Shown here: one piece after another, positions 1 through 63,851 of the stretch
Position numbering within the stretch: position 1 is the stretch's first letter
Layout: each line of letters opens with the position of its first letter
Virus record (IMG/VR): IMGVR_UViG_3300045988_106448
Direction: 5' to 3' (one strand)
Length of the DNA stretch: 64,000 bases
Source of the DNA: a virus
Made by a program: the position numbers and the translations under genes
Notes under the pieces: model-generated
Databases searched by the model: none
The model's input: the letters and a program-made list of their open reading frames with translations, nothing else
Told to the model about the DNA's origin: nothing

Positions 1-2
1 GA

Positions 3-374
3 AATTGTGAAAAGTTTCCTCAAGAATTATTTGAAAATATAGGGGGTTGGATAGTTTTAAAAGATTGTTATGATGTTCACCATATAAATGAAGACAGAAC
101 TGACAATCGGTTAGAAAATCTTGAAATTTTAACTCGAGGTAAACATACTGCAATCCACAATTTAGAAAAGACAATTATAAGAGATGATACTACGGGTAGA
201 ATAATTGGTGTCTTTAAACGAGGTGAATTGCTGGGAAGTCCAGAGGTGGATAATCAGCAGCCAAGCATTAGTAGTAATACTTTTGAAGGTTCAACGACTA
301 ACAGCCGAATCCAAACAGATAATGCTGAGGATAGTAATGCTGACACGAGTGCCTCGCCCCTATTTATAGGGTGA
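3..374 (+). CDS. HNH homing endonuclease, 5'-truncated by the window edge
   Basis: Frame 3 translates to ...WIVLKDCYDVHHINEDRTDNRLENLEILTRGKHTAIHNLEKT..., the classic HNH motif (HH..N..NL..H..H); the ORF runs off the left edge. Confidence 0.7.
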   Translation, partial: NCEKFPQELFENIGGWIVLKDCYDVHHINEDRTDNRLENLEILTRGKHTAIHNLEKTIIRDDTTGRIIGVFKRGELLGSPEVDNQQPSISSNTFEGSTTNSRIQTDNAEDSNADTSASPLFIG

Positions 375-463
375 AGATATAGTCTGAACTTTGCAAATAA
401 CCTAAAAGTAAAGCAAAGAAATAATAGGATAAAGAGCCTATTAGTGTAACAACTCCACATAAA

Positions 464-661
464 TTGGATTACCGTGGAGACGTGGGTGTGCCTCTAATTA
501 ATTTGGGACAGGACGTTGAGAAAATTGAAGATGGCGACCGTGTGGCACAAATTGTTTTCGTGCCATTCGTGCAGGCGAATTTTCAGGTGGTAGCAACCGA
601 AGCTGATCTTGGAGAAACTGAACGTGGTCAAGGAGGATTTGGACATACCGGGAAGAATTGA
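464..661 (+). CDS. dut: dUTPase C-terminal fragment (motifs III-V only), a 3'-exon-like piece
   Basis: LDYRGDVGV (motif III), RVAQIVFVPF (motif IV), RGQGGFGHTG (motif V); TTG-initiated in the ORF track, in-frame stop at 425-427; N-terminal motifs absent from the window. Confidence 0.65.
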   Translation: MDYRGDVGVPLINLGQDVEKIEDGDRVAQIVFVPFVQANFQVVATEADLGETERGQGGFGHTGKN

Positions 662-705
662 TAAAGATTTTGTCCAAGATATTAAACTTTTAAGACAAAA
701 GTAAG

Positions 706-713
706 TATATTTG
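706..713 (+). promoter_or_regulatory. Bacteroidetes-type -7 promoter box TATATTTG
   Basis: Matches TAnnTTTG, 46 nt upstream of the ATG at 759. Confidence 0.45.
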
Positions 714-758
714 TATATCGAAACATGAATTACAGTTTTAAATAAATTAAAGAAGATT

Positions 759-1463
759 ATGGCAAACGCATTAGCAACTAGAGTAAAATTCCGTAAGTAT
801 TCGGCAGAGCAACTTCAGAACGTTATCAACAATGAGGAATCAAACGAAGTAGAAATTCAGGTAGCGACAGAGTTATTGGAAAAGATGGGTGGAGCACCCG
901 CACCCAAAGAAGCCCCGGTAGCCCCCGCAAAGAAAGAGGCTCCGAAGGTAAAGAAAGCCCCGGCTCCTAAAAAGGAAGAACCGAAAGCTGAGAAAGAAGA
1001 CAAGGCTGAAAAGGAGTTACCCGCTGACAAGTCACCGGAAGCGGCTGCAAAACGTCAGAACAAAAAGACAACGGAATACGTTTCGGATGAACAATTGACT
1101 CCGGCAGAACAAGCCCGCTTAGACAAGGCTGAAAAGGAGTTTGATGAACGCCAGAAAAACCGGAAAACCCCTTCCAAGTCTGACAAAACGATGAAGGAGA
1201 AGGCTCCTAAGACTGAAAGAGCAACCAAGCGTGAAAATCTTGAGGAATCAAACGAAGTACCGGGCTTGAAGGTTGGTAGCCAAGTAACCTTGAAAGAAGG
1301 TTCCGAGGTAGGTACGATTACCCGTGTATATCTATCTTCGGATGGTAAAGAGAAATGTATGGTGAAGTTTGGTGATGCCAAACCAATCAAGAAGCGTGTG
1401 ACGGCTGTGGAACTCGCAGAAGAAGCTAAACCGAAAGCCGCCCCGAAAAAAGCTAAGAAATAG
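759..1463 (+). CDS. Lys/Ala/Pro-rich (histone H1-like low-complexity) protein with a globular C-terminal domain
   Basis: APAPKEAPVAPAKKEAPKVKKAPAPKK repeats; C-terminal GSQVTLKEGSEVGTITRVYLSSDGKEKCMVKFGD looks KOW/SH3-like. Confidence 0.5.
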   Translation: MANALATRVKFRKYSAEQLQNVINNEESNEVEIQVATELLEKMGGAPAPKEAPVAPAKKEAPKVKKAPAPKKEEPKAEKEDKAEKELPADKSPEAAAKRQNKKTTEYVSDEQLTPAEQARLDKAEKEFDERQKNRKTPSKSDKTMKEKAPKTERATKRENLEESNEVPGLKVGSQVTLKEGSEVGTITRVYLSSDGKEKCMVKFGDAKPIKKRVTAVELAEEAKPKAAPKKAKK

Positions 1464-2194
1464 TGAGCCCCACTATATATCTAGTCAAAGGTATTTCAGG
1501 AAGTGGCAAATCAACAAGGGTTTACCTATTCTTGGAATACCTTGAATCATTAGGGCTAGAATTGACACCCTTTAAATTTAAAACACTTGACGGAAAAGAA
1601 AAGGAAGTAGGAGTTTATTGTGAGGATTTGGATTTGATTTTCGTTGGGAAGTGGTACGAAAATGGCGGTGTACGCCGTTGGCAGGGGCACGACAGTATGA
1701 CGGGGCGGTTATGTCATTCTGAAGGGCTTAGCTACTTCCTAAAGAGTGTTGCACAAAAGGGTCACAGTGTTGTTTTGGATGGTGCGGGTACGACGGCAAC
1801 ATGGCGGCTTAGACCCAAATTCCTATTTGAGGACAACGGGTTTAAGAGTATTGTTCATATACGGTATGATTACAAGCCGGAGCAGTTGCAAGAATATTAT
1901 GACCGGATCGAATACCGTTCTGGCGAGCCTCCCAAGGGGGATAGTATGTGGCGTAAAAGTAAAACCTTCCTACATGACTATCAAAAGGCTGTAGAAGAGG
2001 CTAAGATGGTTGTATCGGCAGGTTGCCACGTGTCTTTACATGATGAACCATACGATACCCCGGTTTACGATTTGGGTGTTAGAATTTTGGAGCACGTGGG
2101 TTTGGAAGACGTGCAAGATGAGTTCATCGCTTATTGTCAAAATTCAGATTATCTAATTAAAAACTCCTTTAATGAATTCCAGAAAATAAAATGA
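1463..2194 (+). CDS. P-loop kinase, PNK-like, possibly a nucleotide or DNA-base kinase
   Basis: Walker A IYLVKGISGSGKST at the N-terminus; resembles the T4 polynucleotide kinase N-terminus (GCPGSGKST). Confidence 0.5.
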   Translation: MSPTIYLVKGISGSGKSTRVYLFLEYLESLGLELTPFKFKTLDGKEKEVGVYCEDLDLIFVGKWYENGGVRRWQGHDSMTGRLCHSEGLSYFLKSVAQKGHSVVLDGAGTTATWRLRPKFLFEDNGFKSIVHIRYDYKPEQLQEYYDRIEYRSGEPPKGDSMWRKSKTFLHDYQKAVEEAKMVVSAGCHVSLHDEPYDTPVYDLGVRILEHVGLEDVQDEFIAYCQNSDYLIKNSFNEFQKIK

Positions 2195-2979
2195 AATTTC
2201 GAGGGCGTATATATTGTATAGAATGTACTGTAAATCATAAGTGGTATATTGGTCAAACTTCTAGAAGTTTACAAGTTCGGATGAATGGGCATATCAAGTT
2301 AGCTCTGAGGGGAGGGGAATTTGCTTTAAGTCGTGCTATACGAAAATACGGCGTTGAAAACTTTGTAATCGAGGAAATCATGTGGGTTGAGGCTCCTAAT
2401 AAACATTCTCTAAAACAGAAACTCGATTTTCTGGAACGCCATTTTATAGCCCGTTACGACACGAAACATACGGGCTATAATATGACGGAAGGAGGAGAAG
2501 GTGTATTAGGAATTCAATTTGATGAAGAGTCTAGAATAAAAATGTCTGAATCTGCTAAAAATAGATGCGATGAAAATTTTAGAAGAAGACAATCTATTGT
2601 TGCTAAACGTTTATGGCAAAAGGAATCTTTTCAAAAGTTAAGGTCAGAAGCCGCCCATTTGAATTTATTAAATAAAGAAGTTCAGAAAAAGATGGGTTTG
2701 GCTCGCCGAGGATTAAAGTTTACTGAAGAGCATAAGAAGAAAATAGGTTTAGCCGTAAGCGGGGAAAGGAATGGTATGTATGGGAAAAGCCACCCAAAAG
2801 AATTTATTGAAAAATTTACTAAGAAAGTTTATCAATATACTCCAGAGGGGGTTTTAGTGAAAGAATGGTTTTCTATTATTGATATTAAAAGAGAATTGAA
2901 AATAGGCAGAAAATGTTTAAAGAAAGCTATTGCAAATCAATTTATTTATCATGGTTATATTTGGAAATTTAAAAGATGA
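2191..2979 (+). CDS. GIY-YIG homing endonuclease with NUMOD-like DNA-binding repeats
   Basis: IYCIECTVNHKWYIGQTSRSLQVRMNGH...YNMTEGGEG (GIY-YIG, R, E); repeated ...KMSESAKNR... and ...KKKIGLAVSGERNGMYGKSH... modules. Confidence 0.8.
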   Translation: MKFRGRIYCIECTVNHKWYIGQTSRSLQVRMNGHIKLALRGGEFALSRAIRKYGVENFVIEEIMWVEAPNKHSLKQKLDFLERHFIARYDTKHTGYNMTEGGEGVLGIQFDEESRIKMSESAKNRCDENFRRRQSIVAKRLWQKESFQKLRSEAAHLNLLNKEVQKKMGLARRGLKFTEEHKKKIGLAVSGERNGMYGKSHPKEFIEKFTKKVYQYTPEGVLVKEWFSIIDIKRELKIGRKCLKKAIANQFIYHGYIWKFKR

Positions 2980-3974
2980 AAAAGAATAAAATTATTCCAG
3001 TCCCTAACGAAAATTTTCAATATTATTTGTATTGGATTACTAAAAGAATGGAAATTTTTTGGAACAAATACGAGGGTAAACCCGCCCCATGGACGGACGA
3101 TCCTATATTACAAAAATATAAATTTTGTAATACGTACAGGTGCCTCGACAGAGTTAGTCAGTACCTGTTGAGCCACGTGATTTACAACGGTAAGGATTAC
3201 GAACCGGAAGATATGTTTTACCGCATATTGTTGTTCAAACATTTTAACAAGATAGAAACATGGGAAGCGATTGAAAAAGAATTAGGGGATATTACCCTTA
3301 ATGTGGAATTAGAAGACATTGCCAAATGTCTTGATGATATGGTAAAACGAGGCATTACCATTTATGGAAGTGCTTATATTATTAATTGTTGTTTCTACCA
3401 ATTACCGGAGTATTCCTACATGAAGGGGATGTCTAAACACCGGGCACACTTTAGCGTGTTTCAACGTGAAATTTTTGACAACGGGCATATTTATGACTTC
3501 CTAGACGCACAGTCATTAGAGGAGTTGTTTTGGGTATTCCGTAAGATGAAAATATACGGGGACTTTACGGCACAACAATACGCCATTGACATGAATTACA
3601 GCCCTCTGTTTGACTTTAACGAAAATGATTTTGTTATAACCGGACCGGGTTCAATTCGAGGAATTGAGAGGACTTTTCAGAATGCCCGTGGGTGTGATTA
3701 CGTGGGTGTGATGAAATGGGTTCTTGCCCATTTTACGGAGTTGATGTATGAACAAGAAAAGGAGAAAGGTTTCACATTTCGTCCACTTCCTAATCGTATG
3801 CCCACGTTGATAGACTTGCAAAATTGCTTCTGTGAAACGGATAAATATTTGCGGGGTGCCGGGGTTGAAACAGAAGGATTAAAAGTGAAAGGCGAGCGGA
3901 TTAAACACACTTACGAGGCGAACCGTAATAAAATTAAATACACGTTGCCACCTAAGTGGAATGTGAAACTTTAA
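2976..3974 (+). CDS. Conserved hypothetical protein, candidate nucleotide/DNA-modification enzyme
   Basis: 332 aa, aromatic-rich (FWNKYEGKPAPWTDDPIL, KFCNTYRCLDR); no motif I can assign; sits between a kinase and a TS-family hydroxymethylase. Confidence 0.35.
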   Translation: MKKNKIIPVPNENFQYYLYWITKRMEIFWNKYEGKPAPWTDDPILQKYKFCNTYRCLDRVSQYLLSHVIYNGKDYEPEDMFYRILLFKHFNKIETWEAIEKELGDITLNVELEDIAKCLDDMVKRGITIYGSAYIINCCFYQLPEYSYMKGMSKHRAHFSVFQREIFDNGHIYDFLDAQSLEELFWVFRKMKIYGDFTAQQYAIDMNYSPLFDFNENDFVITGPGSIRGIERTFQNARGCDYVGVMKWVLAHFTELMYEQEKEKGFTFRPLPNRMPTLIDLQNCFCETDKYLRGAGVETEGLKVKGERIKHTYEANRNKIKYTLPPKWNVKL

Positions 3975-5041
3975 TTTCAAGAACCATGTTTTTACAAGCT
4001 GAAAATTTAAACGAGGCATTTATTTGCCTTTGTCAAGAACTATTTTATCACGGCGAAGACGTGACCCGGCGTGGCTTTAAATGCCGGGAAATTCCTCGAG
4101 CGGTGTTAGTGGAAATTACCAATCCAGTAGACCGTTATGTGCGTGTGCCAGAGCGCAAATGGAATAAGGTGTTGGGGTGGGTTGAATCCCTATGGATCGC
4201 TCGTGGGGATAATGCTTTAGAAATGCCTGCTGCCTATGTTAAGAACCTGAAGAATTTCAGTGATGACGGCATACACATGAGAGCCGGGTACGGTCCGAGA
4301 TTCAGACATTATGGGGATAACGGGGAATTTAAACCATTGTTTAATCTTCCTATTTCAACAGGATTTCCCGTTGACCAACTTAGATTTGTCATTGAAAAAT
4401 TTAAGGAGGACATTGACACACGGGAAGCGGTGGTTACTATTCATGACCCTGTAATGGACGATTTCGGTCCCGTAGATAACAGTGGGGTGGCTCCTGTTTT
4501 ACGAACAAAGGACACTCCATGCACCCGGTCAATTCATTTCATGATTGTGAACGGTGCGATGAATTGCTACGTTGACATTCGGAGTAATGATGTTGTATGG
4601 GGCTTTAGTGCCGTGAACGTGTTTAACTTTACGTTAATGCAGGAATACGTCGCCGCTCTGGTAGGCGTGCCCGTGGGTAAGTATTACCACAAGGCTGATA
4701 ACTTGCACGTGTATGAAAACTTCTTACCGTTGGTGGAGGAGATTGCCAAGAAGTACACGGGTAACGAATACCCTTCTGGAACCCGGTTCGCTTACAAACC
4801 CTCCTACAAAACTCTTCAAGAGTTTGATGCTTACATAGGTAAACTCAGCACCTTCGAAGAATTGTGTAGAGGGAAGAAAGTTCCGGCAGAAGAATTGGAA
4901 GTGATACTTAGAACCTTTACCGATGACTTATTTAACGATTGGGCTAAAGTGTTCTTCACCTACTGGACTAAACACCCGGTAGAGTTTACCAATCCGTTGT
5001 TAAACGAAATATTTTGTTTTGATGAATTACGAGAAAATTGA
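3956..5041 (+). CDS. Thymidylate-synthase-fold deoxypyrimidylate hydroxymethylase (dUMP/dCMP hydroxymethylase family)
   Basis: Catalytic-Cys context PCTRSIHFMIVNG; DIRSNDVVWGF matches T4 dCMP hydroxymethylase NMRSNDVVFGF rather than ThyA RSCDVFLGLPFN; GWVESLWIARGDN is the TS-fold helix. Confidence 0.7.
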   Translation: MECETLISRTMFLQAENLNEAFICLCQELFYHGEDVTRRGFKCREIPRAVLVEITNPVDRYVRVPERKWNKVLGWVESLWIARGDNALEMPAAYVKNLKNFSDDGIHMRAGYGPRFRHYGDNGEFKPLFNLPISTGFPVDQLRFVIEKFKEDIDTREAVVTIHDPVMDDFGPVDNSGVAPVLRTKDTPCTRSIHFMIVNGAMNCYVDIRSNDVVWGFSAVNVFNFTLMQEYVAALVGVPVGKYYHKADNLHVYENFLPLVEEIAKKYTGNEYPSGTRFAYKPSYKTLQEFDAYIGKLSTFEELCRGKKVPAEELEVILRTFTDDLFNDWAKVFFTYWTKHPVEFTNPLLNEIFCFDELREN

Positions 5042-5561
5042 CATCCTATTAGGGATGAAGGATATCCAAAGGCTACCAAATACCCCCCACCACCGGGGGT
5101 ATAACCTTTTGGAACATGGTTTGGTAGTTGGAATGTTATTCCGGTGGTTCGCTTCAGAAGAGAACGTGGCGTACGACATTAACGTGTTTGACAAGGTTCT
5201 CCTACATGATTTCGTTGAAAGCGTCACGGGGGATTTAAACGCTTGTGTTAAGAAGTTTAACGATAAGACAGCCAAGGCGTGGGACATTATTGAATTTGAA
5301 ATATGCCACGGCAACCCGGTACTCGCCCCCTATTCTGATCAGGAAATAAAGAAAGCCATGACGGATCAGCAATATCGTCTATTTAAAATGTGCGATTATC
5401 TTGATTTGTGGATTTTCTGCCGGAACGAAATGGCGTTGGGAAACCGAGCGCAAAAGTTGGTTAAATGTTTGTCTAACTGCGAAAAGCTATTGGCTCACTA
5501 TTCTCATGAATGGGCTGAGTTTAAAAGCATCGCTAAATTCATGAAACAATATGAAGGGTAA
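5019..5561 (+). CDS. HD-domain 5'-deoxynucleotidase (YfbR-like)
   Basis: NLLEHGLVVG ... VLLHDFVESVTGDL (H...HD...D motif of HD phosphohydrolases). Confidence 0.6.
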   Translation: MMNYEKIDILLGMKDIQRLPNTPHHRGYNLLEHGLVVGMLFRWFASEENVAYDINVFDKVLLHDFVESVTGDLNACVKKFNDKTAKAWDIIEFEICHGNPVLAPYSDQEIKKAMTDQQYRLFKMCDYLDLWIFCRNEMALGNRAQKLVKCLSNCEKLLAHYSHEWAEFKSIAKFMKQYEG

Positions 5562-6231
5562 AGTTATTGGGTTGGTAGGTGTAATTGGTAGTGGAAAAAG
5601 CTATACTTTAAAACGTCTTAAAGAGGAGGCTTCCAACACCTCCAGATTATTTATAGAAGGTGACTTTAGTGAAGGTATTCGTCAATTTATCATGAACATT
5701 TACGTGGGTAATGACGTGCCGATAGATGTGAATGGTGGAGCGTATGCCAAATGGAAGGCACATCCTAATGAAATTGCGTTACCCGTGTTTAGAGATGATG
5801 CCGGGAATTTATCATGCGGTACGATTACCGGGCGCAAACTACTTCAACGGGTTGGAGAGTACATGAAGGCGATGGCAGGTAATGACGTTTGGGCTAAGTG
5901 GACGAAGACAGACGTTATGCGGGCATATAACAAGGCTTGTCTGATTTACCCCACGGCTAAGATTGAAGAAATGACAATTACTTTCGGGTCGGTGCGTTTC
6001 TTATGTGAAGCCCAAGTGGTTTTTGACGTGGCAACCCTTACCGATAAAGAACCCGTGATTATCTTTTGCAACCACAAGTCAGATTCCTACGAGTTGAATG
6101 ATCACGTTAGTGAAGCATTTGCTCGGCACTTTGTTGATTTGGGTTACAAGGACGGTCAAGACATTACCGCCGAGGTACGTAGATTATTATTAAATTCAGA
6201 AAAGGATGAAAGATTTTCTAGCATATCTTGA
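5551..6231 (+). CDS. P-loop dNMP-kinase-like protein
   Basis: MKGKVIGLVGVIGSGKSYT Walker A at the extreme N-terminus, as in the T4 gp1 dNMP kinase. Confidence 0.5.
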   Translation: MKGKVIGLVGVIGSGKSYTLKRLKEEASNTSRLFIEGDFSEGIRQFIMNIYVGNDVPIDVNGGAYAKWKAHPNEIALPVFRDDAGNLSCGTITGRKLLQRVGEYMKAMAGNDVWAKWTKTDVMRAYNKACLIYPTAKIEEMTITFGSVRFLCEAQVVFDVATLTDKEPVIIFCNHKSDSYELNDHVSEAFARHFVDLGYKDGQDITAEVRRLLLNSEKDERFSSIS

Positions 6232-9200
6232 GAGAAATTTAATGGATTATACCCTGATATCAGATTACGTTGTTGATATCGGGGGTAAGACATTCGAGTT
6301 ATACAAGCCCGCTCATGATGGAGCGTTATTCGATGACGACTTTAATTTCGTGGGGATTCCCGCTAATCCTGACCGGGCTTCGGTAGAGGAATCGTCTACG
6401 GAAACTGAATGTGATTTTTACGCTTACCGTTTCGGTGGGGTGTGGTATATGCTACCACGAGGAAAAGAGAACGAGGTAAAATTGATTCGGTTAAAATACG
6501 TGGGTGCGGCACTTCAGGAAGTTCCTACACGGGTATTTCTGGGGGTGCATGGTCAGTACGAAATGATGTCCGGGTCAGGCACGTATAAAGAATGGTGCCA
6601 GAAGGCGAAGTTTTTAGGGGTTCACACGTTAGGTATCTGTGAGAAAAACAGTTTAGCCGGGGCGTTAAAATTCCAAACGGAATGTATCGCTGCCGGGTTA
6701 AAGAGCGTGATTGGAATGGAGTGCAGCGTGTATGATGAACCAAACGATTATGCTTTCACGGCTAAGGTGTACGCTCGCAATGAAAAGGGATGGAAGGACT
6801 TGTTGACAATAAACAAGTTTATAAATTGTGACAATCCTAAATATATAGGAGTTGCCGACTTTCGGAATATTACTCGTGGCAATAATGATCTTGTGGTATT
6901 TTTAGACCCCAAGGCGTTGGACTATGACAAGATTGGAATGTTGGGTATTGCGGGGATTACCAATTTATACCAATTAGACCCGGCTATATACACCGCCGAA
7001 AAGCGTGACGAGTGGTACTTGAAGAATCTTAAAAAGTTCTTTCATGACAAGTCGCTGACAGCCGTGGCGGCTATTGATGCGTGGTATTTGGATGAAGAAT
7101 ACAGTTGTATTCGACCTCGGTTACACAGCATGGGGAACACGATAGCCTATGCAAGTGAGAATCAGTATTTCAAATCAAACGATGAATACTTGTTAGAATT
7201 GTCAGAGTTATTCCCTAAAACTGATGAAGGGTTCGAAATGGCGTATAACAAATTCATGGATGCGATAGACGTGTTGGAAAACGTTGCCGAGGCGATTACC
7301 TTTACCATAGACGTCAAGAAACGCCACTTACCCCACTACAAAATGACAAAGGAGGAGGCGGCAGAGTTTGACAACAATGAGGATCTCTTTTGGTCTCTTA
7401 TAGACAAGGGGCTTGAGGCTCATCCTGACTTAATTGAGGATTGGGGTGAAGAGGTTATTATGGAGCGTATTGAGAGGGAAGTGGGGGTTATAAAGCTAGG
7501 TGAAGCGATTGATTACTTTTTAATCACGTGGGACATTATCAATTGGTGCCACCGTAACGGTATCATGACGGGGATTAGTCGTGGGAGTGCCGGAGGTTGT
7601 TTGGTATCATATCTGTTGGGTATTACCAAACTTGATCCCATGCGGTATGACTTACTGTTCGAGCGTTTCTTGAATGCGGGTCGTGTGAAGGTTTCCCTAC
7701 CTGATATTGACTGTGATTACCCCGGTGAAGACCGTCCTCGTGTAAAGAAGTACATGGAGGAACGTTACGGGTGGAAACAGGTGTGTTCGGTAGGAACGTA
7801 CAGTGCTCTACAATTACGTGCGGCTCTTAAAGCCTTGTCACGGGTGTACGGTTTGCAATTCAAGGACGTTAACGACATGATGAAGTTGTTTGACGTGAAA
7901 GACCGTAAGCCGGAAGACCTGTTTAAGATAGCGTGTGCCCACCCCGTTGTTAAACACTTTGTCAAGGAACACCCGGATTTGATTAACGAAGCGATGCTCG
8001 TGATGCCCGCACCGTTGGCGCAGTCTATTCATGCTTGCGCCATGATGGTATTCCCAGATGAAAACGATATGTTTAGATGGGTGCCTATTCGTAAACAGGG
8101 GGACGAGTACGTTACCGAATGGGAAGGTGGTGAGATGGATGCAGCCGGGTTCTTGAAAGAAGACGTGCTAGGGGTGAAACAGTTTGACAAGTTTCAGGAC
8201 ATGGTACGTTTGATTAAAGAACATGAAGGTGTAGACCTTGATATTTTTAGCGTGCCGTTGGATGACCCTGAAGTGTACGCCTATTTCCAAAATGGGTGGA
8301 ATGAAGATAACTTCCACTTCGGCAGTAACGGGCTAACCGGGTATTGCAAGCAAATGAAGCCTGAAAATATAGAGGACTTGATTGCGGCTATATCCCTGTA
8401 CCGCCCCGGTGCGATGGAGAACAACTTCCATAATGAATACGTGTTGCGTAAGGAGGGCACTAACAAGGTAGAGTATTTCGTTGGTACGAAAGATATTCTT
8501 AAGAATACGTATGGAGTGTTCGCTTATCAGGAACAGATCATGCAGTTATGCCGAGAGTTAGGAGGGTTGTCATTGGTGGAAGCAGATGACGTGCGTAAAG
8601 CGATGGTGAAGAAGAAGTACGAGGCGTTACAGCAATACAAGGAAAGATTTATTCCCTATTACCGGGATAACTACGGCGTTAGCCAAGAATACAGCGAGAA
8701 GGTGTGGGATGCCATTGACAAGGCTTCAACGTACTTGTTTAACCGTAGCCACGCCGCCGCCTATGCCATTACCGGATACATTTCCCAATGGATTAAGGTG
8801 CATTATCCGATAGAGTATTGGTCGGTAGCGTTTAAATACGCCCAAGACTTTGATTACCCCCGGTACATTGCGGAAATTAATAAGACGGGGGTCTGCACGG
8901 TGCGTCCTGTGGATATTAACTTGTCGGCGTTGGATGTTACCATTAACTTTAAAGAAAAGGCTCTGTATTGGTCTATAACCGGAATAAAACAAGTAGCGGA
9001 AAAAGCCGCAACCCAAATTTTAAAAGAGCGTGAAGAGAATGGTGATTACTATTCGTTGGATGATTTCGTGGTTCGGCATAAATGGAAGGGTTCGGCGGTT
9101 AATAGCCGTATCATACGAAACCTAATTTTAGCGGGGGCGTTTGACAAGTTGGAAAACGTGCAGGAACCTTCAGATCGTATTGATTTGTTGATTAATTTCT

Positions 9201-9691
9201 TAGGTTCTACTAATACCGAAATTAAAGATGATGACCCGGTACTTGAAGGGGCTGACAAGCACATGGGAGATGCGTGGTGGTGGGCACTCATGCAAAAGAA
9301 AGTGTCCGGGTTGGCATTCTTTGATTATCGTGGCATTTACGAACGATACGGTGGGGGACAATTCCCGCCCGAGTACGTGTATTCTGAAATAGAGGAGTGT
9401 CAAGGTGAAACCCTTCCTAACGGTAATCAGGTTATTGTAGCCGGGTTCGTTACGGAGTTTGAACTTAAGAAGACACGTAAGGGCGAAATGATGTGTAAAA
9501 TACTGTTGGAAAATAATTATGACTTCCTAGAAGTTATGGTATTCCAATCAGAGTTTGAAACATTAAGGGACTACCTGACCGGGCGTGGGGACATCATCAT
9601 GCTGAATGGCTCGATAGCGTATGATAAACGCAAGGAAGTAAACATTTTAAGGGCGAATTTCGAAACGAATATCGTCACTTTAACGTTATAA
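6206..9691 (+). CDS. dnaE: DNA polymerase III alpha subunit (DnaE-type, N-terminal PHP domain)
   Basis: PHP motif GVHGQYEMMSGSG...LGVHTLGICEKNSLAG; LIAAISLYRPGAME; about 1160 aa with a C-terminal OB-like region. Confidence 0.8.
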   Translation: MKDFLAYLERNLMDYTLISDYVVDIGGKTFELYKPAHDGALFDDDFNFVGIPANPDRASVEESSTETECDFYAYRFGGVWYMLPRGKENEVKLIRLKYVGAALQEVPTRVFLGVHGQYEMMSGSGTYKEWCQKAKFLGVHTLGICEKNSLAGALKFQTECIAAGLKSVIGMECSVYDEPNDYAFTAKVYARNEKGWKDLLTINKFINCDNPKYIGVADFRNITRGNNDLVVFLDPKALDYDKIGMLGIAGITNLYQLDPAIYTAEKRDEWYLKNLKKFFHDKSLTAVAAIDAWYLDEEYSCIRPRLHSMGNTIAYASENQYFKSNDEYLLELSELFPKTDEGFEMAYNKFMDAIDVLENVAEAITFTIDVKKRHLPHYKMTKEEAAEFDNNEDLFWSLIDKGLEAHPDLIEDWGEEVIMERIEREVGVIKLGEAIDYFLITWDIINWCHRNGIMTGISRGSAGGCLVSYLLGITKLDPMRYDLLFERFLNAGRVKVSLPDIDCDYPGEDRPRVKKYMEERYGWKQVCSVGTYSALQLRAALKALSRVYGLQFKDVNDMMKLFDVKDRKPEDLFKIACAHPVVKHFVKEHPDLINEAMLVMPAPLAQSIHACAMMVFPDENDMFRWVPIRKQGDEYVTEWEGGEMDAAGFLKEDVLGVKQFDKFQDMVRLIKEHEGVDLDIFSVPLDDPEVYAYFQNGWNEDNFHFGSNGLTGYCKQMKPENIEDLIAAISLYRPGAMENNFHNEYVLRKEGTNKVEYFVGTKDILKNTYGVFAYQEQIMQLCRELGGLSLVEADDVRKAMVKKKYEALQQYKERFIPYYRDNYGVSQEYSEKVWDAIDKASTYLFNRSHAAAYAITGYISQWIKVHYPIEYWSVAFKYAQDFDYPRYIAEINKTGVCTVRPVDINLSALDVTINFKEKALYWSITGIKQVAEKAATQILKEREENGDYYSLDDFVVRHKWKGSAVNSRIIRNLILAGAFDKLENVQEPSDRIDLLINFLGSTNTEIKDDDPVLEGADKHMGDAWWWALMQKKVSGLAFFDYRGIYERYGGGQFPPEYVYSEIEECQGETLPNGNQVIVAGFVTEFELKKTRKGEMMCKILLENNYDFLEVMVFQSEFETLRDYLTGRGDIIMLNGSIAYDKRKEVNILRANFETNIVTLTL

Positions 9692-9707
9692 ACGTAAATA
9701 AAAGATT

Positions 9708-10244
9708 ATGGAAATACTCGTGCATTTTAACGGAGTACCCGTTACGTTACAAACAAACGGTTTCGAAGACCGTATAGACATTGACCGTTTAACTTCAATT
9801 GATTATGGTAATCTTTACGGAGAAGCCGTGACAGTTAGTGCCCTCTTGAATAAAGTGGGTATGTTACGGGCAGAAGCCGAAAAGACCATGAACGAAAAGA
9901 AGTTGGAGAAGGAGATTTACGAAGCTGACTTGCGCCGTATGTGGCGGCGTGAAGCCAACCGTAACCAAGGGCGGTTTACGATAGAAGGGGAGGAAATTAA
10001 ATTGTCTGAGAAGGCGTTGGACGAAGCGGTAATCCTCGATGAGGAATATCAGAAGATAGCCCTAGAGCATATTGAAGCCCAAAAGAATTTTAATATGCTT
10101 GATGCGTTATTGTGGGCGGTTCAGGACAAGTCTAGAAAATTGAATAATGTTTTAAAACCTGTAACTCCTACGGAATTTCTTAACGAGTTAGTGGAGGGAG
10201 CCGTAAATAGTTTTACAATAACTAGGAAAGGTTTTAACCGTTAA
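9708..10244 (+). CDS. hypothetical protein (coiled-coil)
   Basis: ORF with the typical aaagattATGg start context. Confidence 0.4.
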   Translation: MEILVHFNGVPVTLQTNGFEDRIDIDRLTSIDYGNLYGEAVTVSALLNKVGMLRAEAEKTMNEKKLEKEIYEADLRRMWRREANRNQGRFTIEGEEIKLSEKALDEAVILDEEYQKIALEHIEAQKNFNMLDALLWAVQDKSRKLNNVLKPVTPTEFLNELVEGAVNSFTITRKGFNR

Positions 10245-16576: not shown

Positions 16577-16917
16577 AGTACGTGTTAATGTGTAGAAATC
16601 AAATGTGTGCAGTATGTGACATTCCGGTGGAAACGCCACCGTACAAGATGAAGTACGACAAACGTAAGGGTAAAATGGTTCCCTACCTTGACACGCTTGA
16701 GGTATGTTCTATTTGCGGTGAGCCCTTGCGTTTTATGGAGGAGGAAACAACTATTCCGGAGTTTGGTGTAAATGGCTTTAAGAGCCTACCAGACGACAAA
16801 AAACGTGAGATATTACGTAAACGGTTTGACAAGGATATGCGGACGGGCGGTAGCGAAGAGAAAGAGATGCGTAAAAGAAGTGCAATGAATAAATTTTTAG
16901 GAAGAGATGGGAATTAA
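16573..16917 (+). CDS. hypothetical Zn-ribbon protein
   Basis: CAVCD...CSICGE cysteine pairs. Confidence 0.4.
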   Translation: MKYVLMCRNQMCAVCDIPVETPPYKMKYDKRKGKMVPYLDTLEVCSICGEPLRFMEEETTIPEFGVNGFKSLPDDKKREILRKRFDKDMRTGGSEEKEMRKRSAMNKFLGRDGN

Positions 16918-17626
16918 AGTTTTAAGCCTTTTTGATGGCATTTCATGTGGTATGCTCGCGCTTCAACGGGCAGGAATAGAAGTTGATACTTATTATGCTA
17001 GCGAAATAGATGAATATGCTTTAAAAATTAGCCAACATCATTTTCCAGAAATTATTCAATTGGGTAATGTTGAAGAGTGGCAGAATTGGAATATTCCATG
17101 GGGTGAAATAGATTTATTGTTAGGAGGAAGTCCATGTCAAGGGTTTTCTAAAGTGGGTTTAGAGTTAAATTTTAATGATCCTCGTAGTAAATTAGTATTT
17201 GAATTTGCTGATATATTGGATCATATTAAGCAGTACAATCCTCATGTTTTATTTTTATTAGAAAACGTTAAAATGAGGGAAGAATGGGCTGATATTATTT
17301 CCCAATTAGTTGGGGAAACTTATGAAGTTTACAATTCGGCTTTAGTATCTGCCCAAAACAGAGTAAGATATTATTGGTTTAATTGGGAATCTGCCACAGT
17401 ACAAGATAGAAAAATTTGCCTGAAAGATATAATTCCGGATGCAGCTAGAAATAAAGCCAGAACAGTTCGTGTGAAAGGGGATGGGGTGAAATGGGGTGAT
17501 AAACATGAATGGGATAGAGCCAACCCCGATAGAAAATACACGATGGAAGAATTAGAAATGTTGCAAACACTTCCTATTAAATACACCGATGTAGGAGGGG
17601 GCATGGTAAACGTCGTAAGGCAATAG
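16907..17626 (+). CDS. DNA (cytosine-5)-methyltransferase with a C-terminal frameshift; motif X is encoded out of frame at 17611-17676
   Basis: Motif I LFDGISCG, IV GGSPCQGFS, VI LLENV, VIII QNRVRYYW; the downstream frame encodes RKAIGNCWTVDMIVEIFKMI* (GN.W motif X); one extra G in the G5 run at 17597-17601 would join the two frames. Confidence 0.8.
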   Translation: MGIKVLSLFDGISCGMLALQRAGIEVDTYYASEIDEYALKISQHHFPEIIQLGNVEEWQNWNIPWGEIDLLLGGSPCQGFSKVGLELNFNDPRSKLVFEFADILDHIKQYNPHVLFLLENVKMREEWADIISQLVGETYEVYNSALVSAQNRVRYYWFNWESATVQDRKICLKDIIPDAARNKARTVRVKGDGVKWGDKHEWDRANPDRKYTMEELEMLQTLPIKYTDVGGGMVNVVRQ

Positions 17627-17677: not shown

Positions 17678-17995
17678 ATGATAACTAAAGAAATTTTTGA
17701 TACCTGTAAAGGGGTCGTTAAGAATGCTGGCGTGAACCTGTTACTTCTCGACGTGTTTGGGGAAGTAAAGATTTACGTTGTGAATTTCGTGGTGTTAAAA
17801 ACCCGTGAGAATCGTTATCACGAAGTACGTGATGCACAGGATGTAACATCCATTATTCATACCATTGACAGGTTTGCCACCGGGTTGACAAACATGAAAT
17901 TCATGGATAAAATTCAGTCCATTCCAATGGAAAGTTTCAAATTCGGCACCGATAATTATATCTGGATGACAAAGGTAACTGAGAGTACACGGTAG
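17678..17995 (+). CDS. hypothetical protein
   Basis: ORF followed by a hairpin terminator. Confidence 0.35.
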   Translation: MITKEIFDTCKGVVKNAGVNLLLLDVFGEVKIYVVNFVVLKTRENRYHEVRDAQDVTSIIHTIDRFATGLTNMKFMDKIQSIPMESFKFGTDNYIWMTKVTESTR

Positions 17996-26933: not shown

Positions 26934-28547
26934 ATGGACATTAAAGTATTATTTGACGATTCAGCCCGTGAAGGCTTGTATGAAGGGGTGAAACAAATTA
27001 CCCGTGCCGTGGCTTCTACACTCGGACCGAAAGGACACACGGTTATCATTGATAAAGGTTATGGCATTCCCCACGTGACCAAAGACGGGGTAACGGTGGC
27101 TCGTGCCTTTGATACGGATGACACCGTGGCTCGCATGGGTGCAACCCTCGTTAAGATGGCAGCCGCTAAAACGTGTGACGAAGCCGGAGACGGTACCACT
27201 ACCGCCACCATTCTTACGGAAGCTCTCATACGGTTAGGGATGGAAAAGATGCACCTCGTGAAAAATCCACAACAATTTAAACGAGGAATTGAACGTGCTT
27301 GTGAAGAGGCGGTAGCCTTCATTGACAATTTGAAATATGAAATCGATCCTACGGATTTTACCCGGTTAGAACAAATTGCTACCATTTCAGCGAATGGAGA
27401 CGTGGAGATAGGAAAGGTAATTACCGGGGCTATTCAACAAGTGGGCAACGATGGGATCATCACCGTGGAAGAAGGTGATAACTCTTCTGAGATAACGGTT
27501 GATATCACGACAGGATTCCAATGGTCAAAGGGGCTTGTCAATCCCTATTTCGTAACCGATCGAGAACGTATTGAATGCGTGTTAGACAATCCATACGTTC
27601 TAATACTAGGGCAGAAAGCCAATTACCCGCAAGAAATTCTTCCGGTGGTTCAAACCGTGTACACCGCTAAACGTAGTTTACTTATTGTCGCTCCAGACGC
27701 CTCTAACGACGTCATAAAGTTCCTCGTAACGAACATTGCCAAGGAAAACGGGTTAAAGGCTTGCTTCGTTAAAGCCCCCGGCTATGGACAGGTTCAGAAG
27801 GATATGTTGGAAGACCTAGCCGTGAAGATGGGCGGTAAGGTGGTTGGAGGGGAATCCGCTCAAACCATTGAACAACTAGGTACAGATTGGTTAGGTGAAT
27901 GTGATAGAGCGGTTGTCACCTCTACTCAAACCACCCTAGTTGGAGGGGCGGGTACCGAAGAGGAAATTCAAACCCGTGTCAAGGCTATCAAGAACCAGAT
28001 TGATGACACCTCTAACACCTTTGATAAAGAGAAGTACCGTGAACGCATTAGCAAGTTAACCGGGGGAGCCGCCGTGATACACGTTGGAGCCACTAGCGAG
28101 GTTGAGATGAAGGAACGCAAAGACCGAGTAGACGATGCCATAGCCGCCACACGTGCAGCCATTGACGAGGGCTACGTGCCGGGTGGAGGTATGATGCCAT
28201 ATCAGGCAGCACAATATCTAACGGGTTGGACAACCAATACCACGGAGGATGAACGTGTGGGAATTGAAGTGGTAATCGGGGCTTTACGTGCACCTTTCCG
28301 TCAATTGTGCATGAATGCCGGGGTAAACCCTGATAAATACGAAGCGGTAATAGAAACCAAAATCGGAAGTGAGTGGCGCAAGGGGATTGACTTTTCTTCC
28401 ATGTGCATCGTGAATTTGTTTGAGATTGGGGTAATTGACCCCGTTAAGGTTACACGCCTTGCGTTGCAGAACGCCGTGAGCGTTGCCATACAGTTCCTAA
28501 ATACTTCGTGTGTTATGGCTGAGCCGCCTAAAGACAAGAAGTCATGA
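26934..28547 (+). CDS. groEL: GroEL/Hsp60 chaperonin
   Basis: AREGLYEGVKQITRAVASTLGPKGHTVII..., GDGTTTATILTEAL; full-length 537 aa. Confidence 0.9.
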   Translation: MDIKVLFDDSAREGLYEGVKQITRAVASTLGPKGHTVIIDKGYGIPHVTKDGVTVARAFDTDDTVARMGATLVKMAAAKTCDEAGDGTTTATILTEALIRLGMEKMHLVKNPQQFKRGIERACEEAVAFIDNLKYEIDPTDFTRLEQIATISANGDVEIGKVITGAIQQVGNDGIITVEEGDNSSEITVDITTGFQWSKGLVNPYFVTDRERIECVLDNPYVLILGQKANYPQEILPVVQTVYTAKRSLLIVAPDASNDVIKFLVTNIAKENGLKACFVKAPGYGQVQKDMLEDLAVKMGGKVVGGESAQTIEQLGTDWLGECDRAVVTSTQTTLVGGAGTEEEIQTRVKAIKNQIDDTSNTFDKEKYRERISKLTGGAAVIHVGATSEVEMKERKDRVDDAIAATRAAIDEGYVPGGGMMPYQAAQYLTGWTTNTTEDERVGIEVVIGALRAPFRQLCMNAGVNPDKYEAVIETKIGSEWRKGIDFSSMCIVNLFEIGVIDPVKVTRLALQNAVSVAIQFLNTSCVMAEPPKDKKS

Positions 28548-34284: not shown

Positions 34285-34890
34285 ATGGATGCTAAAGAGG
34301 TGGATGCTGCCCTAGTAAAAGAGGCACTCGATGGGAGCCAAAAGGCATACGAAAAACTATTCAATAAATACCGCTATTCCTTGCGGTATTCAATTTTACA
34401 AATTGTGAGGGATGAGGAAACCGCCAACGATTTACTCATGGAATCTTTTAGTAGAGCCTTTCTAAACCTGAAACGTTACACTACGGATTTCGCCTTTAGT
34501 ACATGGTTATTCCGCATAGGGGTAAACTGTGCGATAGATTATAAACGCAAGCACGGGCGGGTAGTGATGTGCCGTATAGAACAGGACGATCCCGATAGGG
34601 AAGACCGCCCGATGTTCGTTATTCCTGACCCTGACCGTACCCCGGCGGATGCTGCCATACAAAGACAACGTGTCGATTTAGTGCGAGGCGTTATCGCACA
34701 ATTGCCGGAACCTTTCTACACTATGGTTCACCTACGGTACATAGACGGGTTTGCCTATGATGAGATAGCCGATGAGTTAGACGTGCCGTTAGGCACCGTT
34801 AAAGCCTCGCTACACAGGGCGAAACAATTGTTGTGGGAACGCCTCGCTGAAGACAAAAGGTATAAGGAGATACTAACCGAGGAGATATAA
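34285..34890 (+). CDS. ECF-type sigma-70 family sigma factor
   Basis: Region 2 YRYSLRYSILQIVRDEETANDLLMESF...FSTWLFRIGVNCAIDYKR; region 4 HTH YDEIADELDVPLGTVKASLHRAKQLL. Confidence 0.75.
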   Translation: MDAKEVDAALVKEALDGSQKAYEKLFNKYRYSLRYSILQIVRDEETANDLLMESFSRAFLNLKRYTTDFAFSTWLFRIGVNCAIDYKRKHGRVVMCRIEQDDPDREDRPMFVIPDPDRTPADAAIQRQRVDLVRGVIAQLPEPFYTMVHLRYIDGFAYDEIADELDVPLGTVKASLHRAKQLLWERLAEDKRYKEILTEEI

Positions 34891-54266: not shown

Positions 54267-55040
54267 ATGGACATTTCAGCAAAGAAAATTATTTTGATTG
54301 ACATGGACGGAACGCTTATCAATACTCGTTCCGGTGCAACGTTTCCAAAAGGAACGTGGGATATGACCCTTAACATGGATGTATTCGAAAGACTTCGTGA
54401 CCTTCACCCTCTTGCAATTCTTATCAACACGAATCAAGGCGGTATTGAATTAGGAATCGTCAACCCCGTGTTTTTCGAATGTAAATTGAGGTTCGTGTTG
54501 GCTTCCCTACAAGAATTCGTGGGGCAATACACTCAGGTAGCCGCCCGGTACTGCCCGGCTAACGCTAAGGAAGACCCCATGCGCAAACCGAACCCCGGTA
54601 TGCTTAACACGTTGGTTTCCGAATTCGCTACCCAATTAGGAAGGGACATTGATAACAAGGAATGTATTATGATCGGTGACGCTTCTGGCTTGCCGGGCGA
54701 TCATAGCGATAGTGATTTGCAAGCCGCTCGGAATTTCGGTTGCGAGTATCTCGACGTTAACGAATTTATCAAAATGGAAATTCCTGAACCTAAATATCGT
54801 TTGGTATTTATGGAAAACGGTAAAGATTTCCCAGAATGTAATAACCCCGGCACCTTGTACACCAAAGAAGAAGTCGAAAAGGAAATCTCCAAACAAAAAG
54901 AAAAAGGTATAGAATTATGTGCCGTGCCTGAAAAGTGGGAACTTCCTAACATTGTTGAAGAACGTCGTAGTGCGGTAGCCGAGCAACAACCCCAGAAGGG
55001 CAAGAAAGTTATCATGAAACCGAAAACCCGTAAACGTTAA
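54267..55040 (+). CDS. HAD-superfamily phosphatase (subfamily IIIA; polynucleotide 3'-phosphatase/GmhB-like)
   Basis: ILIDMDGTL (DxDGT), RKPNPGM, IGDASG...D. Confidence 0.65.
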   Translation: MDISAKKIILIDMDGTLINTRSGATFPKGTWDMTLNMDVFERLRDLHPLAILINTNQGGIELGIVNPVFFECKLRFVLASLQEFVGQYTQVAARYCPANAKEDPMRKPNPGMLNTLVSEFATQLGRDIDNKECIMIGDASGLPGDHSDSDLQAARNFGCEYLDVNEFIKMEIPEPKYRLVFMENGKDFPECNNPGTLYTKEEVEKEISKQKEKGIELCAVPEKWELPNIVEERRSAVAEQQPQKGKKVIMKPKTRKR

Positions 55041-63032: not shown

Positions 63033-63851
63033 TTATTTCTTTTGTTTTATATACTCTTCCTCCCAATTATCGTTTACAAAATCATCGCATTCTTTTTGAT
63101 ATTTCTTATCATATATTTTAAACACCACGGTATCAAGTTTTTTACGACCTCTACGTTTGTATTCACCTCTGGAAACCAAACAATATTTAAACATTAATCT
63201 AGATTCAGAATTGTTTGCAAGTTCCTTTTTGGCGGGCAATAGTACTCTTTTTTCAAAGTCTTGAATTGTGTAATTAGGAGTTGTTAAACTGTACGCAAGT
63301 TCATCCACCGACACTTCCAAAATTCGTTTAGAATACTTTCCGCTTAATAATTGAAAAATACGTTTGGCATAAGTACCACTTAACGCTAATACAGAATTTT
63401 TATCATACAAAGTCCCTCCAACGCCTTTACCGTAATAGATGAGCCACCGTAAAGCCGCCACCGGAATTCCTAATTTTACTTTATCACCGTCATCACTCAA
63501 ATCCATAGTTTGAATTAAATGGCACGTTCTATGAAATACTTCTCCCTTTTCATCAGTATAAGTGTAATACACATTTTGATTGAAAAGTTTCTTAATTTCG
63601 TTAAGTACCGCGACCCCATGCCTATTTCTTTCAACATCATCGGGGTCAATTTCTATCTCTAAAGTTCCGTCTTTAGAGAGGTTTAAATGTTTACGAAATT
63701 CATCAAAATCGGCTGTTAACCAACTAACATCAGTTGTCATAGCGGGTTGCAATTGATCTACTATATTTACAAGACAATTTATTTGCCAACTTGAAAACTT
63801 ATAACGACCATAAGTCACTAAGTTTGATTGCATTATTGTTTCCTTTTTCAT
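63033..63851 (-). CDS. Rep_3/RepB-family theta-replication initiator-like protein
   Basis: Central LRWLIYYGKGVGG...LALSGTYAKRIFQLLSGKYSKRILEVSVDELAYSL...DFEKRVLLPAKKELA matches the winged-helix pattern of plasmid Rep_3 initiators; iterons lie just upstream. Confidence 0.55.
   Translation of the reverse strand: MKKETIMQSNLVTYGRYKFSSWQINCLVNIVDQLQPAMTTDVSWLTADFDEFRKHLNLSKDGTLEIEIDPDDVERNRHGVAVLNEIKKLFNQNVYYTYTDEKGEVFHRTCHLIQTMDLSDDGDKVKLGIPVAALRWLIYYGKGVGGTLYDKNSVLALSGTYAKRIFQLLSGKYSKRILEVSVDELAYSLTTPNYTIQDFEKRVLLPAKKELANNSESRLMFKYCLVSRGEYKRRGRKKLDTVVFKIYDKKYQKECDDFVNDNWEEEYIKQKK

Follow-up and report, generated by a model that had tools for sequence, protein, structure and literature searches.

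Gene content and organization of the locus

The window, i.e., the whole stretch of DNA analyzed here, comprises 64,000 nucleotides of IMG/VR virus record IMGVR_UViG_3300045988_106448, and belongs to a large phage of Bacteroidota. Positions 1463-6231 form a single tight operon on the plus strand, which lies, as had been noted in the initial annotation of this DNA, directly upstream of a gene for a DnaE-type polymerase. The locus contains the following features:

167..408, plus strand: group I intron splitting the dUTPase gene (Rfam RF00028, 58.7 bits vs. a gathering score of 50)
464..661, plus strand: dUTPase exon 2 (PF00692, E 5.7e-12, profile positions 71-129 of 129)
759..1463, plus strand: Lys/Ala/Pro/Glu-rich 234-aa protein, its stop overlapping the kinase start
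1463..2194, plus strand: predicted 5-hmdU DNA kinase of the HMUD2 class, P-loop (PF18747)
2191..2979, plus strand: GIY-YIG/NUMOD3 free-standing homing endonuclease (PF01541, PF07460; phrog_314, E 4.7e-26)
2976..3974, plus strand: clade-1 aGPT-Pplase-like protein, 332 aa (Pfam HMUDK_hel, PF18723)
3986..5041, plus strand: predicted dUMP hydroxymethylase, thymidylate-synthase fold (PF00303, E 1.4e-17; phrog_5131, E 7.7e-61)
5022..5561, plus strand: YfbR-like HD 5'-deoxynucleotidase (PF12917, E 7.4e-15)
5551..6231, plus strand: P-loop protein, tentative dNMP kinase (phrog_139)
6206..9691, plus strand: DnaE-type replicative polymerase (1161-aa ORF)

All open reading frames of the initial annotation were recovered at or near the positions given there, with two starts revised: the thymidylate-synthase-fold gene likely begins at ATG 3986 rather than at the upstream in-frame GTG 3956, and the HD gene at ATG 5022 rather than at TTG 5019. 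The homing endonuclease gene had been overlooked. Family searches with the 234-aa protein gave no match, and the protein is 61% identical in L008, where its position is kept. The DnaE shares 39% identity with DnaE of Tenacibaculum and Cellulophaga phages, and PHP, DNA_pol3_alpha, finger and HHH_6 domains were identified on the identical gene in L003.

Two mobile elements interrupt the locus. The dUTPase gene reported at the left edge is present there as exon 2, exon 1 lying left of the window; in L003, exon 1 lies at 7880-8155 and an HNH ORF at 8214-8912. The RF00028 match to the intron covers the full model length, window positions 210-390 share 85% identity with the dUTPase intron/HNH region of crAssphage, and the insert is missing from a 98%-identical IMG/VR genome. 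The homing endonuclease gene is a mobile insert between the kinase and clade-1 genes and not a pathway enzyme; its GC content is 0.34, vs. 0.38-0.47 in the neighbor genes, and it is flanked on either side by ATGA overlaps.

A predicted dUMP hydroxymethylase and neighboring nucleotide enzymes

In the thymidylate-synthase-fold protein, Cys189 (PCTRS) aligns with C146 of Escherichia coli ThyA and with the active-site Cys of T4 gp42, and the segment RSNDVVWGF aligns with RSNDVVFGF of T4 gp42, vs. RSCDVFLGLPFN in ThyA, so that both the retained catalytic Cys and the motifs given in the initial annotation proved accurate. The Asn at the specificity position, which had been taken as a hint of a uracil substrate, is indeed shared with SPO1 gp29, SP10 gp188 and ThyA (N177), whereas the cytosine-specific T4 gp42 ('ND') and MilA ('SD') have Asp. 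A T4-type dCMP hydroxymethylase was rejected on the basis of this Asn and of 19% identity to gp42.

The best phage matches (34-36% identity, E ~1e-33) were SPO1 gp29 (34% identity, E 7e-34, ~138 bits) and the SP10 dUMP hydroxymethylase. The closest proteins were the hydroxymethylases of the hmU phages SPO1, SP82G and CP-51, and further matches were annotated as deoxyuridylate hydroxymethyltransferase. MilA was the best match in the PDB (75.8 bits), with ThyA structures scoring 36 bits at most. Canonical ThyA was rejected, as the protein fell below the cut-off of all seven equivalog models (at best 65.9 bits vs. 174.55 for NCBIfam TIGR03283; 34-48 bits vs. cut-offs of 108-427 for the other six). 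Clustering with ThyA had been named beforehand among the outcomes that would speak against such a module; what was found is a grouping with experimentally known dUMP hydroxymethylases (SPO1 gp29, SP10 gp188). The protein is predicted to be a dUMP hydroxymethylase rather than ThyA by this clustering, and not by a diagnostic residue.

The assignment of the HD protein as a YfbR-like 5'-deoxynucleotidase was upheld by PF12917 and by a match to E. coli YfbR (2paq, E 6e-8). Its gene adjoins the thymidylate-synthase-fold gene in all five related phage contigs, and the protein is a candidate dTMP/dNMP phosphatase. For the P-loop protein at 5551-6231, the dNMP-kinase assignment comes from a single match (phrog_139 'dNMP kinase', E 2.8e-9, residues 1-127), the Pfam matches being to generic AAA only. 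A tblastn search against cultured phages gave no match, and PDB sequence and profile searches no relative, while the protein is conserved in L008 and L010. We tentatively regard it as a candidate hmdUMP kinase.

A DNA kinase and a clade-1 protein

The P-loop protein at 1463-2194 had been labeled PNK-like, which was incorrect: it matches PF18747 ("5-hmdU DNA kinase 2") with E 1.9e-24 (86.8 bits, cut-off 25), and proteins with a P-loop and either PF18748 or PF18747 were classed here as 5-hmdU DNA kinases. Its Walker A is GISGSGKST, and this motif, together with the RSG, R117/P118 and D77 invariants, is common to the window protein and the ViI-like kinases. BLASTP identified gp243 of Salmonella phage ViI (YP_004327565) as a full-length homolog (E 6e-21 over 260 aa), and gp243 has been shown to transfer one phosphate to 5-hmdU in DNA in vitro (PMC8989533).

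The profile searches suggested at the outset, against 5-HMUDK models for the kinase and against aGPT-Pplase models for the 332-aa protein, were both positive. The latter protein, correctly described as aromatic-rich (Phe, Tyr and Trp make up 15.9%), matches PF18723 with E 1.2e-79 (268 bits, cut-off 25), the family previously named aGPT-Pplase clade 1. It is homologous to M6 gp55, to ViI gp160 (pairwise E 1e-24, nearly full length) and to the C-terminal half of SP10 gp186 (E 7e-23 for its clade-1 domain). In gp186 of SP10, a 5-hmdU DNA kinase (residues 35-197) and the clade-1 domain (residues 317-630) are naturally joined in one polypeptide. The AlphaFold2 model (pLDDT 92.6) is a single all-helical domain. 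Across 44 homologs (43-85% identity), 23 columns are invariant, including C286, E287 and K290, and the FCE..KY motif is kept in ViI gp160. The protein is predicted to work by base flipping, with 5-phosphomethyl-dU in DNA as its substrate.

A profile-profile comparison of clades 1 and 2 was not significant, and Cys286 is therefore not equated with the catalytic Cys247 of PaMx11 gp46. Besides, the 332-aa protein had neither sequence nor profile similarity to M6 gp51 and PaMx11 gp46, and a role as amino acid:DNA transferase or 5-PmdU glycinyltransferase was rejected, as it is not a member of PF18724. We know of no clade-1 protein with a demonstrated enzymatic activity. The clade-1 protein M6 gp55 is dispensable in vitro for the synthesis of N-alpha-glycinylthymidine (PMC8989533).

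The proposal that the locus encodes a DNA kinase and a pyrophosphorylase-type transferase stands insofar as PF18747 and PF18723 are matched, but the proven transferase family is absent. That family, PF18724 (clade-2 aGPT-Pplase), provides the amino acid:DNA transferase in every reconstituted pathway. It had no match in the ~68 ORFs of the window and none in 38 ORFs of the 98%-identical IMG/VR genome, from which the 47 kb upstream of the window were read, and phmmer with M6 gp51 as query found no clade-2 relative. Overall, ~111 of the ~113 kb of the genome yielded neither a clade-2 amino-acid:DNA transferase nor a PLP or radical-SAM enzyme. Since ~2 kb were unseen and ~40 ORFs of the window have no family, a transferase of unrecognisable sequence could exist.

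Distribution in related phages

Each of the five related phage contigs carries the clade-1, thymidylate-synthase-fold and HD genes (43-64% identity), and four of them also carry the HMUD2 kinase gene. Ahead of the clade-1 gene lies a cassette that is swapped between phages of the lineage, and that consists of HMUD2 alone, of HMUD2 with a pair of unknown proteins, of which one weakly matches clade 3, or of an APH/choline-kinase-like protein, a cytidylyltransferase and a GT1 glycosyltransferase. This swapping suggests several different chemistries. The lineage comprises dozens of IMG/VR contigs, with some protein clusters holding thousands of member sequences, and its hosts are Bacteroidota, probably of the gut. 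A published metavirome survey was queried with HMUD1-type kinases (PMC8989533), and from this we infer that phages with HMUD2 only were probably missed.

Proposed pathway for thymidine replacement and hypermodification

The swap of thymine for 5-hydroxymethyluracil, followed by modification of the base, is a known anti-restriction strategy of phages, which we predict to be used, in a reduced version, by the new lineage described here. We consider it probable that the module encodes a two-stage pathway of thymidine replacement and hypermodification, of the kind established for SP10, PhiW-14, ViI and M6, in which 5-hmdU is converted via 5-PmdU to an adduct (Lee et al. 2018, 2021). In the first stage, judging from homology, the dUTPase would provide dUMP, which the thymidylate-synthase-fold enzyme would hydroxymethylate to 5-hmdUMP, and the P-loop dNMP-kinase-like protein, together with the host NDP kinase, would yield 5-hmdUTP, while the HD nucleotidase would drain dTMP. 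With this supply and this drain, the adjacent DnaE is proposed to build DNA in which 5-hmdU replaces T. In the second stage, on the DNA polymer, the HMUD2 kinase, by its homology to a characterized enzyme, would convert 5-hmdU to 5-phosphomethyl-dU by phosphorylation of its 5-hydroxymethyl group. Judging from its fold, its conservation and the linkage of its gene, the clade-1 protein would then flip out the base and displace the phosphate, probably via the invariant Cys286, and either a nucleophile (an amino acid, an amine or another metabolite, as in SP10) would become attached or another product would form. As clade-2 transferase, PLP and radical-SAM tailoring enzymes were not found, the final base cannot be named.

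If this prediction is correct, the virion DNA of this lineage carries a modified thymidine, which would make restriction enzymes, and possibly other nucleases, less effective, and which could skew the sequencing of these phages and their enzymatic library preparation. With one kinase, one clade-1 protein and no proven clade-2 transferase, the system is unusually minimal, and thus offers a clean test bed for clade-1 function, including the role of ViI gp160, M6 gp55 and the C-terminal half of SP10 gp186.

For the outcome of the second stage, we tentatively put forward that the stand-alone clade-1 enzyme, with the HMUD2 kinase alone, performs a group transfer that installs a chemically undescribed thymidine hypermodification in this widespread ~100-110-kb DnaE phage lineage. 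A rather unlikely alternative is that the replacement is transient, i.e., that the phage replicates with 5-hmdU and that the kinase and clade-1 protein then reductively restore thymine, so that the packaged DNA has largely or wholly normal T. Part of the 5-hmdU is converted to thymine at the polymer level in SP10, PhiW-14, ViI and M6 by an enzyme that has not been identified (PMC8989533), and an aG/PT-PPlase-type gene is listed for all four (PMC5889632, Table 3), three of which we confirmed as clade-1 (M6 gp55, the C-terminal half of SP10 gp186 and ViI gp160). The window phage likewise has clade 1 and no proven transferase, and hydride transfer to a Cys-dependent exocyclic-methylene intermediate, as proposed for PaMx11 gp46 (PMC11472151), is conceivable in principle. 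On the other hand, neither a hydride donor nor a cofactor-binding domain is evident in the all-helical 332-aa protein, full reversion would make for a costly pathway without lasting protection, and a reversion role for clade 1 is our own suggestion and not a published one.

It is improbable that the phage is of the SPO1 type, with plain 5-hmdU in its DNA and the kinase and clade-1 genes inactive or otherwise used. The nearest hydroxymethylases are those of hmU phages, and genes for a dUTPase, a nucleotidase and a kinase-like protein make up the classic hmU set (PMC8989533), but both the kinase gene and the clade-1 gene are intact and translationally coupled, and they remain strongly conserved in contigs with identities as low as 43%, where their proteins keep invariant catalytic-type residues. 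Moreover, hypermodifying ViI-like, M6-like and SP10-like phages, and no SPO1-like phage, are among the listed matches of the two proteins. That a divergent thymidylate synthase, kinases, nucleotidase and dUTPase serve to boost dTTP, with canonical DNA throughout, is very improbable. Many annotation pipelines do label the genes as thymidylate synthase and guanylate kinase, and phages commonly encode a thymidylate synthase and a dUTPase. However, the thymidylate-synthase-fold protein fell short of the ThyA equivalog models by wide margins, ThyA structures scored far below MilA and SPO1 gp29, and the specificity of both PF18747 and PF18723 is for hmU-DNA modification systems.

Comparison with known systems

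The two-stage pathway proposed above shares elements with several known systems. SPO1-type Bacillus hmU phages, which have a dUMP hydroxymethylase (gp29 in SPO1) and enzymes that exclude dTTP, have the same pre-replicative logic, the closest hydroxymethylases and the long C-terminal extension, and differ in that their records are absent among the listed matches of the window DNA kinase and clade-1 protein. In the Pseudomonas phages M6/PaMx11, the system consists of the gp54/gp49 kinase and the gp51/gp46 glycine:DNA transferase, with gp55 as the clade-1 protein of M6; the kinase is of a class other than the HMUD2 of the window, and gp51/gp46 are unlike the 332-aa protein.

The 5-NeOmdU pathway of ViI involves the kinases gp67 and gp243, the clade-1 protein gp160, the serine:DNA transferase gp247 and the PLP decarboxylase gp226. 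The window encodes homologs of gp243 and gp160, and in ViI-like phages, too, the kinase gene has as neighbors the DNA polymerase gene and one of the 5'-nucleotidase family (NT5C in the ViI-like phage pSal-SNUABM-02). The HMUD1 kinase, clade-2 transferase and PLP enzyme that carry out the reconstituted chemistry in ViI (PMC8989533) have no detectable counterpart in the window.

As no clade-2, PLP or radical-SAM enzyme was found, the minimal kinase and clade-1 system most resembles that of Bacillus phage SP10, which makes alpha-glutamylthymidine. In Table 3 of PMC5889632, the second of the rows for aG/PT-PPlase gives none for this phage. SP10 differs from the window in its host (Bacillus vs. Bacteroidota), in the large radical-SAM-related gp185 adjoining gp186, for which no radical-SAM counterpart was detected in the window phage, and in its HMUD1-type kinase, which is fused to the clade-1 domain in gp186, whereas the HMUD2 kinase and clade-1 protein of the window are separate, their genes split by the homing endonuclease. 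Nevertheless, both phages combine a dUMP hydroxymethylase (gp188 in SP10, 33% identity), a 5-hmdU DNA kinase and a clade-1 domain, with the modification genes clustered near the DNA polymerase.

Gene organization and mobile elements

We conclude that the module at 1463-6231 is a genuine gene set for thymidine replacement and hypermodification, as the initial annotation had correctly inferred from the raw sequence. It lies within a single co-directional, closely packed series of genes (window 1-9691), in which neighbouring genes share overlaps of a few bases with ATGA-type junctions:

464-661, dUTPase, exon 2 only
759-1463, Lys-rich 234-aa protein
1463-2194, 243-aa P-loop protein
2191-2979, GIY-YIG/NUMOD3 homing endonuclease, 262 aa
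2976-3974, 332-aa protein
3986-5041, thymidylate-synthase-fold protein
5022-5561, YfbR-like HD protein
5551-6231, 226-aa P-loop protein
6206-9691, DnaE

Three details of the earlier gene list change: the thymidylate-synthase-fold gene is present, with ATG 3986 a likelier start than 3956; the homing endonuclease had been overlooked; and the dUTPase at the left edge is there as an exon rather than a whole gene, with a group I intron at 167-408 (58.7 bits, Rfam). The interrupted dUTPase gene, whose first exon is found in a database locus with a DnaE gene identical to that of the window (L003 7880-9199), carries an HNH endonuclease ORF in its intron (window 167-408, exon 2 at 464-661). Over bases 210-390 the sequence has 85% identity to the intron/HNH region in the dUTPase gene of crAssphage, and this intron was the sole match to cultured phages in a megablast search with window 1-10000. 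The allele of a 98%-identical IMG/VR genome (IMGVR_UViG_3300045988_093070) has no intron.

The gene of the homing endonuclease has a low GC content (0.34) and is also located between the kinase and clade-1 genes in the related phage contig L008. Homologous kinases of some ViI-like phages carry a fused N-terminal GIY-YIG domain (listed beside a further locus, L018 6302-7900). Because of this adjacency and this fusion, homing endonucleases seem to have been repeatedly drawn to this kinase gene. In the IMG/VR relative, DnaE contains a 1.1-kb insertion at the position of window 7687-7703, which is absent from the window, and the large terminase contains an additional 1.26-kb insertion, the terminase of L003 (2686-4785) already having a Hint/intein domain. 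In both cases a mobile element in an essential gene is polymorphic, being present in some genomes and absent from others. The 234-aa protein, encoded immediately ahead of the kinase, is conserved, Lys/Ala/Pro-rich and histone-H1-like.

Kinase and clade-1 protein

The initial annotation had proposed a 5-hmdU DNA kinase and a pyrophosphorylase-type transferase for two proteins of the module, and Pfam profile searches gave matches for both: the 243-aa protein to PF18747 "5-hmdU DNA kinase 2" (HMUD2; E 1.9e-24) and the 332-aa protein to PF18723 "HMUDK_hel" (E 1.2e-79). Current Pfam names were tied to those of the literature by scanning the proteins of phage M6, in which gp51 belongs to PF18724 (now "amino acid:DNA transferase", earlier aGPT-Pplase2; clade 2), gp54 to PF18748 and gp55 to PF18723, and PF18723 is therefore the family once called aGPT-Pplase clade 1. 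The 'Kinase2' of SP10 (gp218; PMC5889632) was considered as a counterpart of the window kinase and rejected as an unrelated 156-aa P-loop protein, so the kinase was compared directly with ViI gp243 (YP_004327565; E 6e-21 across 260 residues). In the same way, the 332-aa protein matched ViI gp160 (E 1e-24), in which the FCE..KY motif is conserved, and residues 317-630 of SP10 gp186 (E 7e-23), a protein whose N-terminal portion is an M6 gp54-like kinase. At the level of sequence, these comparisons confirm both predicted assignments. Both ViI gp243 and SP10 gp186 transfer a single phosphate to 5-hmdU in DNA (PMC8989533), and the fusion in SP10 gp186 independently supports joint action of the kinase and the clade-1 domain.

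The initial annotation had described the 332-aa protein as aromatic-rich, and 15.9% of its residues are indeed aromatic. Its AlphaFold2 model, built from 44 homologs, is all-helical (mean pLDDT 92.6), and a Foldseek search of the PDB with this model found nothing. Across the 44 homologs, 23 positions are invariant, among them C286, E287 and K290, all three within the final long helix, as well as D205, D58, R24 and K154. Many of these positions are polar, and the pattern is what would be expected of an enzyme and not of a passive "helical domain"; we found no functional evidence behind the Pfam name 'HMUDK_hel' ('helical domain') and no activity assigned to clade 1 in the literature consulted. 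M6 gp55 was dispensable for the formation of N-alpha-glycinylthymidine in vitro (PMC8989533). In PaMx11 gp46, a cysteine (Cys247) attacks C6 and phosphate is expelled (PMC11472151). Cys286 is at most a candidate for its structural equivalent, because the profile-profile comparison between clades 1 and 2 was not significant, whether hhalign paired the clade-1 alignment with M6 gp51 by itself or with 32 aligned clade-2 sequences. The mechanism that we propose for the 332-aa protein is therefore putative.

Two alternatives bear on the roles of these proteins. The same kinase and clade-1 protein might turn 5-hmdU back to thymine, which we consider unlikely, and it is more doubtful still that the DNA contains plain 5-hmdU.

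Thymidylate-synthase-fold protein

The sequence features noted initially for this protein were borne out by alignment. The Cys of PCTRS falls in the same column as the catalytic Cys of both E. coli ThyA and T4 gp42, and RSNDVVWGF aligns with RSNDVVFGF of T4 gp42, where ThyA has RSCDVFLGLPFN. The specificity position is occupied by Asn, as in ThyA, SPO1 gp29 and SP10 gp188, and by Asp in the cytosine-specific T4 gp42 and MilA.

The closest cultured-phage matches of the protein are SPO1 gp29, SP10 gp188 and their relatives, and the ViI-like/M6-like hydroxymethylases (26-36% identity, E down to ~1e-36). Its top PDB match is the CMP hydroxymethylase MilA (75.8 bits), compared with at most 36 bits for true thymidylate synthases; all seven NCBIfam ThyA equivalog models score it far under their cut-offs; and, like SPO1 gp29 and SP10 gp188, it has a long C-terminal extension. 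It therefore does not cluster with bona fide ThyA, and its clustering with hydroxymethylases suggests that it would hydroxymethylate rather than methylate. Ordinary nucleotide metabolism, the least likely of the three alternatives to a hypermodification module, is very improbable. The 226-aa dNMP-kinase-like protein (5551-6231) had no matches by tblastn or in the PDB.

Further modification enzymes and cassette variation

Pfam scans of ~68 window ORFs detected no PF18724 protein, PLP-dependent enzyme or radical-SAM enzyme, and phmmer searches with M6 gp51, gp52 and gp53 found nothing. The window belongs to a 112.5-kb ENA contig, and 61 kb of IMGVR_UViG_3300045988_093070 was rebuilt by stepwise walking through related loci. 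Its upstream 47 kb holds 38 ORFs, which code for portal, capsid and baseplate proteins, a holin, NUDIX functions and an intein, with no modification enzymes among them. The phage therefore has a minimal set, HMUD2 plus clade 1.

The clade-1 protein has 1853 relatives in the database (E <= 1e-5), the nearest on contigs of 80-113 kb. Its gene and those of the thymidylate-synthase-fold and HD proteins are constant in five phage contigs (43-64% identity), and the genes upstream of it differ: the 234-aa protein, HMUD2 and GIY-YIG endonuclease in the window and L008; HMUD2 and two proteins without a known family, one of them matching aGPT-Pplase3 below threshold (E 0.004), in L010 (6376-10004) and L016 (7785-10038); and, in L017 (7046-9992), which lacks HMUD2, a protein weakly matching APH/choline kinase together with a cytidylyltransferase and a GT1 glycosyltransferase. 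This upstream region looks like a swappable modification cassette. On a 763-kb bacterial contig (L011 6989-13458), a clade-1 homolog (45% identity) is flanked by an Nmad2 protein and a radical-SAM/SPASM enzyme, with TIR/ThsB genes and an IS66 element adjoining, an arrangement suggesting that the clade-1 family also serves in a cellular island for DNA modification or defence.

Host and other genes

The cultured phages with the most similar DnaE infect Tenacibaculum, Cellulophaga, Chryseobacterium and Bacteroides, and the window phage carries a Bacteroidales-like DUF2400 and a crAss001_48-related protein. Based on these genes and on the 85%-identical crAssphage dUTPase intron, we infer that the host is probably a gut member of the Bacteroidota. 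A literature search on hmU or hypermodification in phages of Bacteroides/Bacteroidetes found nothing relevant.

Other genes include a C-5 cytosine DNA methyltransferase (16907-17626, 239 aa) whose match to the Pfam and TIGR models is limited to their N-terminal half. It may be a truncated or split enzyme, or one of unusually small size, and the 105-aa ORF following it (17678-17995) had no match. A PNK3P/HAD-type polynucleotide 3'-phosphatase-like protein is encoded at 54267-55040, distant from the module. The window also encodes a GroEL-type chaperonin (26934-28547), a sigma-70-family factor (34285-34890) and, on the minus strand, a Rep3-type initiator (63033-63851). This right-end protein has no relative in IMG/VR, though the remaining genome is well represented there.

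Comparison with known systems

The system belongs to an already known kind (Lee et al. 2018, 2021), and what is new here is the lineage and the minimal kinase-2/clade-1 composition. Table 3 of PMC5889632 has no entry for SP10 in its second aG/PT-PPlase row, and it is the set of SP10 to which the HMUD2 and clade-1 set of the window phage is closest.
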